DNA of 64,000 bases from Escherichia coli. Lineage in GTDB: Bacteria > Pseudomonadota > Gammaproteobacteria > Enterobacterales > Enterobacteriaceae. The notes below the pieces were generated by a model, which made no database searches, had not been told where the DNA came from, and saw only the letters and a program-made list of their open reading frames with translations. Position 1 is the first letter of the stretch; each line of letters opens with the position of its first letter. The stretch lies in assembly GCF_003790525.1 (NCBI RefSeq), contig NZ_CP033635.1; one strand, written 5' to 3'. The position numbers were made by a program, and so were the translations under genes. Positions 2,616-34,903 of this stretch are shown here, piece by piece.

Positions 2616-2915
2616 CAGACATACCTCCGAAGCGTACTGCGCAGCCAGACAATTCTTGCGACGTCAGTTGTGGTTAAAGTTTAGCCATGTTGGGATTTTT
2701 TGACGAAACGGTGGGAGGCAGAAATGGGTGGGGGCCCTGCCAGCTACATCCCGGCACACGCGTCATCTGCCTTGGCTGCTTCCTTCCGGACCTGACCTGG
2801 TAAACAGAGTAGCGTTGCGGGAGAACCAACAGAGCCCCCATTGAGAGCGTTGAGAACCAACGCGCAGGCGCATTATCACTGCTGCCCCAGCTAATTGCAA
2901 CCCATTGCGTGCCGG

Positions 2916-18056: not shown

Positions 18057-20411
18057 CTATTTTGCAGTCACAACCTGCATGCCAGACGGTTCATTTTGCA
18101 GCGCCAGAGTCAGAACTTCCTCAATGCGTTTCACAGGATGAATATCCAGATCGGCAATTACGTTGTCAGGAATCTCTTCCAGATCGCGTTTATTTTCGAA
18201 CGGAATTAACACTGTTTTAATCCCGCCGCGATGCGCTGCCAGTAGTTTTTCTTTCAAACCACCGATAGGCAGTACCTGACCACGCAGAGTGATCTCACCG
18301 GTCATTGCCACATCGGCACGAACCGGGTTACCGGTCAGGCAAGAAACCAGCGCGGTGCACATAGCAATACCGGCACTCGGACCATCTTTCGGCGTCGCAC
18401 CTTCCGGTACGTGGACGTGGATGTCGCGTTTTTCATAAAAATCAGGGTTGATCCCCAGTTTTTCCGCACGCGCACGAACCACCGTTAACGCCGCCTGAAT
18501 GGACTCCTGCATCACTTCGCCAAGCGATCCGGTATAGGTCAGTTTGCCTTTACCCGGAACGCACGCGGTTTCAATGGTCAGCAAGTCACCGCCCACTTCC
18601 GTCCACGCCAGACCAGTTACCTGACCGACACGGTTTTCGTTATCCGCGCGACCATAGTCGAAACGCTGAACACCGAGATAGTCATGCAGGTTATCGCCGT
18701 TAATTTCGATATGTTTTAATGACTTATCGAGCAGTAACTGCTTAACCGCTTTGCGACACAGTTTGGAGATTTCACGCTCCAGACCACGCACGCCCGCCTC
18801 ACGGGTGTAGTAACGAATAATGCCGATAATGGCGCTATCGTCGACGGTCAGCTCACCTTTTTTCAGTGCATTACGTTCAATCTGCTTCGGCAGCAGGTGA
18901 CGTTTGGCGATGTTCAGTTTTTCATCTTCGGTATAACCGGAGAGGCGAATCACTTCCATACGATCCAGCAGCGGTGCCGGAATGTTCATGGAGTTCGACG
19001 TCGCGACAAACATCACGTCGCTAAGGTCGTAATCCACTTCCAGGTAGTGGTCGCTGAACGCTACGTTCTGCTCTGGATCCAGCACTTCAAGCAGTGCGGA
19101 AGCCGGATCGCCTCGCATGTCAGAAGACATTTTGTCGATCTCATCGAGCAGGAACAGCGGGTTTTTCACGCCCACTTTCGCCATTTTCTGGATCAGTTTA
19201 CCCGGCATAGAACCGATGTAAGTACGGCGGTGACCACGGATTTCCGCTTCATCACGCACGCCGCCCAGCGCCATACGGACATATTTACGCCCGGTGGCTT
19301 TGGCGATGGACTGCCCCAGGGACGTTTTACCTACCCCCGGTGGCCCTACCAGGCAGAGGATCGGTCCCTTGATTTTGTTGACACGGCTTTGAACCGCAAG
19401 ATACTCAAGGATGCGATCTTTCACGCGCTCCAGACCATAATGGTCGGTATCAAGGATTTCCTGCGCCTGACGCAGGTCTTTTTTGACCTTGCTACGCGCA
19501 TTCCACGGTACCTGTACCATCCAGTCGATATAACCACGCACTACGGTCGCTTCTGCCGACATCGGAGACATCATTTTCAGCTTCTGCAACTCTGCTTCCG
19601 CTTTCTCTTTTGCCTCTTTCGGCATTTTCGCCGCGTCGATTTTGCGCTTCAGGGCTTCGTTTTCGTCCGGCGCGTCGTCCATTTCACCGAGTTCTTTCTG
19701 AATAGCTTTCATTTGCTCGTTCAGATAGTACTCACGCTGGGATTTCTCCATCTGCTTTTTAACACGGTTGCGAATGCGTTTCTCAACCTGCAGCAGATCG
19801 ATTTCCGATTCCATCATTGCCATCAGATATTCCAGACGTTCGTTAACGTCGGACATCTCCAGAACGGACTGTTTGTCAGCCAGTTTCAGCGGCATATGTG
19901 CAGCAATGGTATCCGCCAGACGCGCCGGATCGTCGATGCTATTCAGCGACGTCAGCACTTCTGGTGGAATTTTTTTGTTCAGCTTGATGTAGCCTTCGAA
20001 CTGGCTGATTGCAGTACGCACCAGCACTTCCTGTTCCCGCTCATCAATGGTCGGCGACTCCAGATACTCCGCCTTCGCAGAAAAGTGTTCGCCATTGTCA
20101 GAGAGCGCAGAAATACGCGCGCGCTGTAACCCCTCGACCAGCACTTTGACGGTGCCGTCAGGCAGTTTCAGCATCTGCAATATAGAGGCCACGGTCCCGA
20201 CGGTGAAAAGATCGTTTACACCCGGCTCATCCGTTGAAGCTTCTTTCTGCGCGACCAGCATAATTTTTTTATCATGGTCCATCGCCGCTTCCAGACAACG
20301 GATAGATTTTTCCCGCCCGACAAATAAGGGGATGACCATGTGCGGATAAACCACCACATCGCGCAGCGGCAATACGGGGATTTCAATGCGTTCAGAACGC
20401 TCAGGATTCAT
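18057..20411 (-). CDS. lon: ATP-dependent Lon protease
   Basis: ORF 18057..20456; start [16 protein letters not shown] gives 784 aa; Walker [10 protein letters not shown]; catalytic Ser in DGPSAG. Confidence 0.97.
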
Positions 20412-20495
20412 AGAGCTCTCTCTTAGTTTAATTTCCGCCAGGTAATCAGATGACACGACTGTGCTTCACGCCATCTATTAACATGTACGTCAGTA

Positions 20496-20521
20496 TATGG
20501 GGATGTTTCCCCCACATTCAA
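20496..20521 (-). promoter_or_regulatory. sigma32 heat-shock promoter of lon
   Basis: Minus strand reads TTGAA-N(13-14)-CCCCATAT upstream of lon. Confidence 0.75.
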
Positions 20522-20598
20522 CGCCGAGAATAGAGGAAAAATTAAAGGGGAGATAAAATCCCCCCTTTTTGGTTAACTAATTGTATGGGAATGGTTAA

Positions 20599-21873
20599 TT
20601 ATTCACCAGATGCCTGTTGCGCTTCCGGCTTGCCATAAATCAGCAACGGCTTGCTTTGACCATCAATTACCGATTCGTCGATAACCACTTTTTCGACGTC
20701 TTCCATGGACGGCAGATCGTACATGGTATCGAGCAGTGCGGCTTCTACGATGGAACGCAGGCCACGGGCACCGGTTTTACGCGCCATCGCTTTCTTAGCG
20801 ATAGCATCCAGCGCCTCGTCACGGAATTCCAGATCCACACCTTCCAGATTAAACAGCGCCTGATACTGCTTGGTCAGGGCGTTTTTCGGCTCTTTGAGGA
20901 TCTGAATCAGAGCTTCTTCGCTCAGTTCATTCAACGTTGCGACAACCGGCAGACGACCAATGAACTCAGGGATCAGACCAAACTTGATCAGATCTTCCGG
21001 TTCAACCTGCGCCAGCAGTTCACCTTCGCTTGCTTTGTCGGACTTCGCTTTTACCGTCGCGCCAAAACCAATGCCGGAACCGGTTTCTACTCGATGGGAA
21101 ATCACTTTATCCAGACCGGCAAACGCACCGCCACAGATAAACAGGATCTTAGAGGTATCAACCTGCAAGAATTCCTGCTGCGGATGTTTACGCCCACCTT
21201 GCGGCGGAACAGCAGCTACCGTACCTTCGATCAGTTTTAACAGTGCCTGCTGTACGCCTTCACCGGAAACGTCTCGGGTAATGGACGGGTTGTCTGACTT
21301 ACGAGAAATCTTGTCAATTTCATCGATGTAGACAATCCCGCGCTGCGCTTTCTGTACGTCGTAATCGCACTTCTGCAACAGCTTCTGAATGATGTTTTCA
21401 ACGTCTTCGCCCACATAACCGGCTTCGGTCAGCGTGGTTGCGTCAGCCATGGTGAACGGAACGTCCAGCAGGCGCGCCAGCGTTTCGGCCAGCAGCGTTT
21501 TACCGGAACCGGTCGGACCGATCAGCAGAATGTTACTTTTGCCCAACTCGACGCCATTGCTGGTATCTCCGTTGCGCAGACGTTTGTAGTGGTTGTATAC
21601 CGCGACCGCCAGCACTTTTTTCGCCTGTTCCTGACCGATAACGTAATCGTCCAGGTGGTTGCGAATTTCATGCGGCGTCGGTAGCGCACTGCGTTCACGA
21701 TGCGGTGCAACTTCTTTAATCTCTTCGCGAATGATGTCGTTACATAAATCAACACATTCGTCGCAGATATACACGGATGGACCGGCAATCAGCTTGCGCA
21801 CTTCATGCTGGCTTTTGCCGCAAAAAGAGCAATACAGCAATTTGCCTGAGCCATCTTTGCGTTTATCTGTCAT
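20599..21873 (-). CDS. clpX: ATP-dependent Clp protease ATPase subunit ClpX
   Basis: 424 aa; N-terminal zinc finger CSFCGK...CDEC; Walker A GPTGSGKT. Confidence 0.97.
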
Positions 21874-22622: not shown

Positions 22623-22800
22623 TTCCGTCTCCTGGATAAAATTGAAAAAACCTGCTGTACCGATTGTAACCTTATGGACGGATTATCAGCTAGTCCCTGT
22701 GTTATGGGTACGGCATCACCATATTTCAAGCATAACAATCTTTTGTTGTTACGCTAACACCGAAAGAGGCTTTTCGCACGGTTCCATGCAAAATTCATGA

Positions 22801-32527: not shown

Positions 32528-32537
32528 GTCTGAGATC

Positions 32538-32564
32538 AGAGATACGGCTAATAACCGTATCTCT
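32538..32564. promoter_or_regulatory. palindromic operator candidate 1 (AGAGATACGG-N7-CCGTATCTCT)
   Basis: Perfect 10-bp-arm inverted repeat just upstream of the -35 box. Confidence 0.5.
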
Positions 32565-32593
32565 TGACAGAGTGAGCATATGCACATAAATTA
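32565..32593 (+). promoter_or_regulatory. sigma70-like promoter of the DUF1778/GNAT operon
   Basis: TTGACA, ~16-17 nt spacer, TAAATT; sits between two related palindromes. Confidence 0.55.
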
Positions 32594-32598
32594 ATCAC

Positions 32599-32613
32599 AC
32601 GGTTGATAGCCGT
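32599..32613. promoter_or_regulatory. palindromic operator candidate 2 (ACGG-N7-CCGT, shares GCCGTAT half-site)
   Basis: Second related inverted repeat just downstream of the -10 box. Confidence 0.45.
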
Positions 32614-32668
32614 ATTATGCATGAGATCGACTCCCTACGATTTCATTCAGTTAATCAAAGAGGTCATA

Positions 32669-32980
32669 ATGCCTGGAAAAACAGTCGCTCTACCCGATAT
32701 CGATAAAACGCTGAAAAATGCGCGGGTTGAACTCAAAACCAGCCCCGACGCCAAAAACAAACTTCGTGAAGCTGCGCAAGCCGTTGGGGTAGATTTAAGC
32801 GCTTTTATTTTGAGCGCAGCTATGGAACGCGCCGAAAGTGTGCTTGATAACCAACGTCGCCGTGAGCTTTCGAATCAAAGCTGGGAACTGATGAACCAAC
32901 TCATCGCTGAACCTGCTCAACCGACGCTCGCCCTCAAGGCGTTAATGAAAAGGAAAAACAGCGATGGTCGACAAGCATGA
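32669..32980 (+). CDS. DUF1778 (TacA/AtaR-like, RHH) antitoxin of a GNAT toxin-antitoxin pair
   Basis: ORF 32603..32980; Met MPGKTVALPDID preceded by AAAGAGG Shine-Dalgarno; ~103 aa; 17-bp overlap with downstream GNAT gene; resembles TacA/AtaR-type antitoxins. Confidence 0.75.
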   Translation: MPGKTVALPDIDKTLKNARVELKTSPDAKNKLREAAQAVGVDLSAFILSAAMERAESVLDNQRRRELSNQSWELMNQLIAEPAQPTLALKALMKRKNSDGRQA

Positions 32981-33506
32981 AGAGATTACTCTGCCCATAG
33001 TCCTCTCCTGTAATTATCAGTCTGATATTACTTATCCTGGGCAAAAACAGTTTGATTGCGGTAACCCTGTTATCGATAAATTTGTACGCGCATCGCTAAA
33101 GAAAAGTGTGCGTAATAGCGACTGTGCTGCTAAAGCTCTTATTGACAGACAAAGTGGTGAACTGATTGGCATCTGTACTTTTACGGCATATTCGCTGGAA
33201 AAACAACGCGTTTCTGGCGTCCTTCAGGGTTCACAACCTTCAGAGATTGGTGTTGTCAGATTAGTCATGTTAGGGGTAGCGCGGAAATATCAAAAGCGGG
33301 GCTTTGGTCAGGACCTACTATGTGATTTTTTTGAACATGTAAAAATAATTCACCGGGCATTACCAATTAAAGGGGTTTATCTTGATGCTGACCCTGCCGC
33401 CATTAACTTTTATACTCGCCTCGGCTTTGTTCAGCTTTCAGCGAGGCCCAATGTTTTCGGTGCTGTACCGATGTTTTTAGCGATTCAGCATATTCTCGCG
33501 GCTTAG
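32964..33506 (+). CDS. GNAT-family acetyltransferase toxin (TacT/AtaT/ItaT-like, predicted aminoacyl-tRNA acetylating)
   Basis: 180 aa; N-terminal FDCG motif; acetyl-CoA binding loop RKYQKRGFGQDLL; C-terminal FYTRLGF as in AtaT-like toxins; translationally coupled to the antitoxin. Confidence 0.75.
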   Translation: MVDKHEEITLPIVLSCNYQSDITYPGQKQFDCGNPVIDKFVRASLKKSVRNSDCAAKALIDRQSGELIGICTFTAYSLEKQRVSGVLQGSQPSEIGVVRLVMLGVARKYQKRGFGQDLLCDFFEHVKIIHRALPIKGVYLDADPAAINFYTRLGFVQLSARPNVFGAVPMFLAIQHILAA

Positions 33507-33561
33507 ATTATTATCGCCTCCGGCCAGGGCTAGTTTTGCCTCAGCCGGGGACTGAGCAGCG

Positions 33562-34497
33562 TTACCACTTTTGTTCAATTGCCCCCGCTTTCAGCAACTC
33601 CACATCCTTGCCGTTAATGGTTGCCGTTGCGGCAACGATTGTGGTCCTTACAGTTGCACAAGATTTTCGCTCAAATTCCGGTTTATAAAGAATTAGAGAC
33701 GAATTACTGGTAAATGAATCAAATATGTAATCAGTAAAGCTAATATTCAGCCGGTTTAAACCGAAAGGCGCGAAGCCAACCGTTTGGTTAATCTCCTTAC
33801 CGGATGGGCTACGAATGCTGAATGTCACGCGAAGATTGGCCACTTCGCCTAATTTATTGGTGGTGGCGAAGAGGCTATCCATGCAGGAAAAACCTTTATC
33901 TAAAAAATTATCCCGCATCCCAGAACGGGTAACCGTGATCACGGGTAACGTATCGTCAACCGTTTTTCTGTCAATCATGTCTTTTCGACATGTAGCCAGA
34001 AAGTCTTCCGGACCACCATAAATGTGGACACCTTTATCAAGATATTCCTTCGCTTTCTTACAATCTACCTCAACATACTGACCATTGGCGTACATCATGC
34101 CCAACCTGGACCATGCTAAATTCACACCGTATTGCGCGGCCTGATTAAATAGTGCATACGCTTTGGCATAATCCACCCGCACCAGCTCACCGTCGTAGTA
34201 GATACTCCCCAGCGCTAACGGAGCTTCTCTATCACCGTGTTTAGCGGCTAACTCAAACCATTTAATCGCTTCCTGAACATCAGGTTTGGTATCAAAGCGA
34301 GGCTGATAATATTCCCAGCCTAACAGGCTCTGCGCGTCGACATCTCCCAATTCAGCCATTTTATGCAGTCTATTTATAACATCGGGCGCAGGTTGACCAC
34401 CGTATATGCTGTCATACAATTCATGCGCTTTCTCGCTTGCCACCACGCATGGTGAAACTATTAGCATTAAAGAAAATAATATTCTTTTAGTTAACAT
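33562..34497 (-). CDS. secreted Sel1-repeat (TPR-like) protein with uncharacterized C-terminal domain
   Basis: ORF 33562..34557; probable start MLTKRILFSLMLIVSPCVVA (signal peptide); several Sel1-like repeats (AAKHGDREAPLALGSIYYDG, AAQYGVNLAWSRLGMMYANGQ); low GC; no K-12 counterpart recalled here. Confidence 0.65.
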   Translation of the reverse strand: MLTKRILFSLMLIVSPCVVASEKAHELYDSIYGGQPAPDVINRLHKMAELGDVDAQSLLGWEYYQPRFDTKPDVQEAIKWFELAAKHGDREAPLALGSIYYDGELVRVDYAKAYALFNQAAQYGVNLAWSRLGMMYANGQYVEVDCKKAKEYLDKGVHIYGGPEDFLATCRKDMIDRKTVDDTLPVITVTRSGMRDNFLDKGFSCMDSLFATTNKLGEVANLRVTFSIRSPSGKEINQTVGFAPFGLNRLNISFTDYIFDSFTSNSSLILYKPEFERKSCATVRTTIVAATATINGKDVELLKAGAIEQKW

Positions 34498-34903
34498 GTA
34501 TACCTTTATGTTCTCTCTGTCATATATTTCCATAATAATTAACCACCAAACATCCATTTAATGAATAAATACAGTACCATAAAGGCCCAAGTAATAAGCA
34601 CACATTTAACCTGAAACATTATCATCGATGTCACCAAATCGTTTATTTAGTGAGATAAAAATAGCATGTTCGCAAGATAAAAAATGCACATAGCAATCAA
34701 GAAATAATATTATTACTTTTGATGTAAAACTATTTAGCTTTAAGAATAATTTTTTCAACATATAGAGCATTCATTTTATGAATGCAAAATAAACATACCT
34801 GACACACAAACTATTCTCCTCTGTAATATTTTCTCATTAACACTCTGTTTACCCAACATGCGCTCCGCACTACACTATGTGGGCATTTTTTTAAGAGGTG
34901 GTA

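Follow-up and report, generated by a model that had tools for sequence, protein, structure and literature searches.

The heat-shock promoter of the Escherichia coli lon protease gene, very probably located in the clpX-lon gap

The main promoter of the Escherichia coli lon protease gene very probably lies at positions 20495-20521, on the minus strand, of the 64,000-nucleotide stretch of DNA analysed here (the window), where it takes the form of a sigma-32 (RpoH) heat-shock promoter; we put the probability of this reading at roughly 0.93. Knowledge of the lon promoter goes back to the 1980s; its heat inducibility and direct dependence on sigma-32 are established, and heat and misfolded protein raise sigma-32 and hence Lon. 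The primary papers on the lon (capR) heat-shock promoter are said to be those of Gayda in 1985, Cowing in 1985 and Chin in 1988. The preliminary description of this DNA had already proposed a heat-shock (sigma-32) promoter of lon, and the proposal fits the motif, its spacing and position, the mapped transcription start, the sigma-32 ChIP data and the conservation that we describe below.

A comparison over 39 kb shows 97.6-98.3% identity between the window and MG1655, in reverse orientation, so that the window comes from an E. coli strain other than MG1655. The 261 nt around the site are identical to those of E. coli K-12 MG1655, and are present in 5424 of 5426 complete E. coli genomes, in each case with clpX on one side and lon on the other. 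The element is therefore the same as the published E. coli lon promoter (that of MG1655), and nothing differs within the promoter itself. The intergenic gap is 187 nt long on the minus strand of the window, from the clpX stop codon (TAA, 20601-20599) to the lon ATG (20411), and the clpX terminator is followed on that strand by tctcggcgTTGAAtgtgggggaaacatCCCCATATactgacgtAcatg, which contains both promoter elements. The gap and the gene that follows it are made up as follows.

20534-20568, minus strand: intrinsic terminator of clpX from a terminator scan, with a G+C-rich stem of 11 pairs (20568-20544) and a T-tract (20543-20534)
20517-20521, minus strand: -35 element TTGAA (TTGAAT when read on to 20516), an exact match to the sigma-32 -35
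20503-20516, minus strand: spacer TGTGGGGGAAACAT, 14 nt, inside the 13-15 nt range of sigma-32 promoters
20495-20502, minus strand: -10 element CCCCATAT of the sigma-32 promoter, which fits CCCCATnT
20486, minus strand: transcription start site (an A), which is TSS 458037 of Cho et al. (2014) converted with a 776-bp offset between genome versions
20412-20485, minus strand: 5' leader of lon (75 nt counting +1), which holds a hairpin (20447-20477) and an invariant block (20412-20442)
18057-20411, minus strand: lon coding sequence, 784 aa plus stop (2355 nt), 'lon: endopeptidase La' in RefSeq, with an N-terminus conserved in 120 loci

A longer reading frame for lon, of 799 aa from GTG 20456, was rejected as a mechanical extension only, the 784-aa frame being the one that fits RefSeq lon and the conserved N-terminus.

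The consensus for sigma-32 promoters is reportedly TTGAA, 13-15 nt, CCCCATnT, as given by Cowing in 1985 and Nonaka in 2006. The -10 element CCCCATAT lies 84 nt upstream of the lon ATG, and the CCCC within it is dyad-symmetric with a run of G in the spacer. The sigma-32 motif had been placed at 20490-20525 in the preliminary description, with TTGAA on the minus strand, and both elements and the 14-nt spacer do fall inside that range. The pattern TTGAA-N12-16-CCCCATNT occurs a single time in the 64-kb window, both strands included, against a mean of 0.04 after shuffling, and 3 of 100 shuffled windows contained at least one match. When mismatches were tolerated, the 64-kb window held no second site with 11 or 12 of the 12 specified bases, the runners-up reaching 10/12. 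Taken by itself, the motif is only moderately unlikely to arise by chance; the argument is carried by its position, by the mapping data and by conservation.

Compared with the sigma-32 promoters of dnaK (P1), groE and clpP, the lon site shares both core elements perfectly, has a spacer of 14 nt and initiates about 7 nt beyond CCCCATATA. It is distinguished by TTGAAT in place of TTGAAA, and by a G-rich spacer that makes it a target of IS186 (see below). It also matches the consensus better than does the neighbouring clpP site in the window, TTGAA-15-ACCCATAA, which scores 10/12. This second sigma-32-like site lies upstream of clpP at 22702-22729 on the minus strand, and the clpP start at 455829 (Cho et al., 2014) converts to window position 22694, 8 nt downstream of it. 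A text search of the literature for the literal string AACATCCCCATAT returned only unrelated lists of bovine primers.

The start of lon transcription has been mapped by Cho et al. (2014, BMC Biol 12:4), whose Table S6 derives from sequenced 5' ends enriched for 5' triphosphates under four conditions, including heat shock. The table gives a lon start at 458037 on the + strand, with 1744 reads and assigned to the transcription unit lon; two far weaker starts, with 82 and 166 reads, lie inside clpX (Cho et al., 2014). For the start at 458037 the same source lists 'DH' (sigma-70 plus sigma-32) as the bound sigma factors, from ChIP-chip with a resolution of hundreds of bases and a signal that includes sigma-70, together with 'DNHF' for the motifs and 'DH' for the combined call. 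The conversion of such coordinates to the window was checked internally on dnaK and clpP. We take the coordinates of Table S6 to be those of U00096.2, 776 bp lower than U00096.3/NC_000913.3. As a cross-check, the clpP start at 455829 is sensible only with clpP at 455901, 776 bp below its position in NC_000913.3, and the length of the NC_000913.3 record is also consistent. Given the 776-bp offset, 458037 becomes 458813 in NC_000913.3 and 20486 in the window. The published start is thus mapped to the promoter that the preliminary description had proposed, and not elsewhere. A20486 lies 9 nt after the last T of CCCCATAT and 7 nt after CCCCATATA. A start at this spacing is reportedly the geometry expected of sigma-32 promoters under the Cowing 1985 consensus.

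Conservation was followed in lon loci that were collected from species-representative genomes by a degenerate-pattern scan with a conserved stretch of the Lon N-terminus. The scan gave 120 loci, 119 of them usable, which span the Enterobacteriaceae, Erwiniaceae, Yersiniaceae, Pectobacteriaceae, Hafniaceae, Morganellaceae, Vibrionaceae, Aeromonadaceae and a few other groups. A perfect TTGAA-N13-15-CCCCATNT is present in 105 of the 119, and in 104 of these no more than 300 nt separate it from the ATG; 103 of the 104 have a 14-nt spacer, and 8 further loci match at 11 of the 12 bases. The sequence of the spacer varies freely by family, being TGTGGGGGAAACAT in Escherichia, TGTAAGACATTCGT in Yersinia and TCCAACCAATTAGC in Vibrio. 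An alignment of the loci on their -10 element gives an information content of about 2 bits per position in the hexamers, against about 0-0.5 bits in the spacer and flanks; for the hexamers the measure is circular, as those columns were selected by the anchoring pattern. TTGAA is invariant in the 109 anchored loci, and the T that follows it, which was not selected, is 94% conserved; CCCCATATAnT is 94-100% conserved, with its unselected A, A and T at 97%, 94% and 95%. When tested in this comparison, the promoter elements upstream of orthologous lon behave as sequences under purifying selection would.

Some loci have a longer leader. In Enterobacter sp. R1 the motif lies at -301, with about 215 nt inserted in the leader. 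Like that locus, those of Xenorhabdus mauleonii and of a metagenome-assembled member of the Enterobacteriaceae have extra sequence (about 60-215 nt in the three) between promoter and ATG, so that the promoter lies 142-301 nt upstream. The exceptions to the motif are confined to certain lineages, namely the Vibrio halioticoli group, Proteus penneri and the insect symbionts Pantoea sp. Nvir and Westeberhardia. The three loci of the Vibrio halioticoli group have a degraded site, TTGAT...CCTTATAT. In the six loci concerned, the lon -10 element has a degraded CCCC and reads CCTTATAT, CACTATAT or GCCCTTAT, or the motif is absent, which suggests that sigma-32 control of lon may there have been lost or replaced. 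Since some lineages without the CCCC still have lon, this part of the -10 element is not indispensable everywhere.

Sigma-32 need not be the only user of the site, as a sigma-70-like -10 hexamer overlaps the sigma-32 -10 element.

20492-20497, minus strand: sigma-70-like -10 hexamer TATACT, 18 nt from TTGAAT, found by a consensus scan (9/12)

The site could then be essentially a sigma-70 promoter, TTGAAT-18 nt-TATACT, with only a secondary likeness to sigma-32 promoters. The scan does find this pair, sigma-70 is bound at the same start (Cho et al., 2014), and two key bases of TATACT, A20496 and T20492, are 97% and 95% conserved although both lie outside the anchoring pattern. The pair is weak, however, with 4/6 and 5/6 matches and an over-long 18-nt spacer, and it stands at chance level, one such pair being found in the region against 0.9 expected. 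Moreover, CCCC has no role in recognition by sigma-70 and is nevertheless kept in 112 of the 119 loci, at a fixed 14 nt from TTGAA, and sigma-32 is bound at the site too (Cho et al., 2014). We consider a promoter for sigma-70 alone improbable, and dual use by sigma-32 and sigma-70 the most likely arrangement of the two. The ChIP signal and the sequence together indicate that the lon promoter is probably dual, with sigma-32 serving induction and sigma-70 providing part of the basal level through TTGAAT-18-TATACT.

How much of the conservation could instead reflect an RNA encoded on the opposite strand? A scan of the whole window at Rfam gathering thresholds gave two matches, one of which lies on the strand opposite the lon promoter and the terminator of clpX.

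20483-20578, plus strand: match to Rfam RF02029, the sRNA family sraA, at 106.7 bits against a gathering threshold of 56, over model positions 1-95 (full length)
2735-2831, minus strand: ffs, the gene for 4.5S RNA (signal recognition particle), Rfam RF00169

SraA was reportedly first described by Argaman et al. in 2001. A passage of PMC3384567 lists it as an sRNA between clpX and lon, PMC11251521 in the relevant part treats it as overlapping lon sequence, and a passage of PMC12266141 has it detected by RNA-seq at a constant level in all conditions tested there. It could thus be argued that what is conserved here is above all the SraA gene (plus strand, 20483-20578), and that the hexamers are kept as parts of the structure of the sRNA. 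Besides these listings and the RNA-seq detection, the strength and full length of the RF02029 match speak for such an explanation, as does the occurrence of the family in 11 of 12 other Enterobacterales loci tested (Providencia being the exception).

The alignment shows where the parts of the model come from. In stem 1, UGGGG...CCCCA, the strand opposite the lon -10 element pairs with the strand opposite the spacer G-run; the outer pairs link the complement of ACT, which follows the -10, to that of AAT, which belongs to TTGAAT; and the second stem corresponds to the clpX terminator in reverse. Although the match is full length, the columns that are conserved in the model mirror, on the opposite strand, the -10 and -35 elements of lon and the terminator of clpX. 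A pair count on the Rfam structure in a 55-species alignment found compensatory changes in 0 of the 9 pairs of stem 1, two of which are unpaired in 19 and 29 of the 55 species; only the terminator stem covaries, in 4 pairs. The 5' arm of stem 1 is invariant because it is the complement of CCCCA in the lon -10 element. RNAalifold, run on the alignment in the sraA sense, recovered neither stem and returned only a spurious long-range helix of 4 pairs. The hexamers and their spacing persist in Vibrio and Aeromonas, whereas the sraA model gave no match at the Vibrio or Aeromonas locus tested. In addition, no sigma-70-like promoter was found on the plus strand within 20300-20700, either by scan or by eye, Table S6 of Cho et al. 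(2014) holds no antisense (minus-strand) start at sraA, and sraA is missing from the annotation of the NC_000913.3 copy analysed, in which ffs is listed. That the sequence is conserved for the sake of SraA is thus highly improbable. These points concern only the reason for the conservation, and a plus-strand transcript may exist.

If it does, the lon promoter might be read on both strands: SraA would start beside the lon start, pass through both promoter elements (-10, then -35) and stop at the terminator that it shares with clpX, and it would either modulate initiation at lon by transcriptional interference or report on occupancy of the promoter. We regard this as unlikely, and find it easier to believe that the sraA family is conserved only as a mirror of the promoter and the terminator.

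Independent evidence for the sigma-32 promoter comes from insertion sequences. In the window, the G-run and the C-run, 6-7 nt apart (GGGGG-AAACAT-CCCC) across the spacer and the -10 element, form the IS186 target GGGGGAAACATCCCC at 20512-20499.

20500-20512, no strand assigned: IS186 insertion site, with the overlap GGGGAAACATCCC duplicated at both junctions in BL21, as read from the junction sequences

The target consensus of IS186 is reportedly that given by saiSree in 2001. BL21(DE3) carries a 1.3-kb element with an IS186 transposase between the bases that correspond to window positions 20500 and 20512, and TTGAA is thereby moved 1.3 kb away from CCCCATAT. Among the 5426 complete E. coli genomes, IS186 occupies this junction in 56 (about 1%), in the BL21 orientation in 49 and in the opposite one in 7. 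The carriers account for virtually all of the 55 genomes in which the region is not intact, and include every E. coli B derivative, a number of K-12 laboratory strains and several isolates of clinical or water origin. The window shares the sequence of the hot spot, but its site is empty and its promoter intact.

The consequences of these insertions are described in passages of several papers that cite saiSree et al. 2001: PMC7377907, PMC4618355, PMC11251521 and PMC3045373 refer to the hot spot, to which PMC7377907 and PMC4618355 trace the Lon deficiency of E. coli B; PMC3045373 describes insertions that are spontaneous, occur in either orientation and use a single site; PMC11251521 states that IS186 insertions inhibit lon expression; and PMC3861542 states that they can excise precisely. 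As IS186 stands between the two elements in strains reported to be Lon-deficient, these strains provide independent evidence that lon expression needs the elements to be adjacent. The G-run of the Escherichia spacer and the CCCC of the -10 element would together supply a GGGG-N6/7-CCCC target and so create a frequent and reversible off-switch for Lon.

One further record bears the trace of such an element. In NZ_CP137697.1 the match to the window breaks at 20512, and the junction, which runs ...GCGCTTATG and then GGGAAACATCCCCATAT, is the end of an IS186-type element. The record is 128.8 kb long and is called plasmid pEcFELIX533.1; its chromosomal genes run ybdK-hokE-IS186-lon-hupB-ppiD, and the end of IS186 directly adjoins the -10 element of lon. 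This arrangement looks like an IS186-mediated rearrangement or excision, and is possibly an assembly artefact.

There is, finally, the notion that the site is a chance match to a short consensus and has no function; with only 12 specified bases such matches do turn up in a few shuffled windows (see above), but this one has the gap, the strand and the distance from a mapped start that a lon promoter should have, its exact spacing is conserved in 105 of 119 species and its splitting is reported to abolish Lon, so that chance can be dismissed.

Two neighbouring elements complete the picture of the sigma-32 promoter. The clpX terminator was called on the plus strand as well (20547-20563, plus CCTTTTTGGT), with T-runs flanking the stem on both sides (20534-20578), and from its sequence it looks bidirectional. 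Downstream, the leader block CCTGGCGGAAATTAAACTAAGAGAGAGCTCT (20442-20412) is almost invariant across the Enterobacterales and the purine-rich AAGAGAGAG before the lon ATG is kept even in Vibrio; the hairpin at 20447-20477 is variable in sequence. The lon leader matched no Rfam family, and its folding in 25 species gave a mean z-score of -0.1 against shuffled sequences, which is not significant; for this reason we make no claim of a structured leader beyond the hairpin and the invariant block.

Together, these elements suggest how the region would work. The sigma-32 holoenzyme would contact TTGAA at -35 and CCCCATAT at -10, 14 nt apart, and the DNA would open around ATATACT. Initiation at A20486 would produce the 75-nt leader followed by lon, and the rise of sigma-32 after heat or protein-folding stress would lead to more initiation at this promoter. 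Lying 22 nt upstream of the -35 element, the clpX terminator should largely insulate lon from read-through out of clpPX, to judge from its position and sequence.

Elsewhere in the window, about 2.4 kb lies between cyoE and yajR (32528-34893), where MG1655 has only about 95 bp. This stretch encodes a TacA-like antitoxin (PF08681), a GNAT acetyltransferase as a toxin-like partner and, on the other strand, a Sel1-repeat protein.

The heat-shock promoter of lon was already known, and biology gains little from meeting it again. What the analysis does provide is an example of a textbook sigma-32 promoter that can be recognised from raw sequence alone. It also holds a caution for those who annotate sRNAs, in that the sraA model seems to score the lon promoter together with the clpX terminator, and not an independently supported RNA structure. 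Both elements of the promoter and the 14-nt spacing between them have stayed nearly unchanged from Escherichia to Vibrio and Aeromonas.
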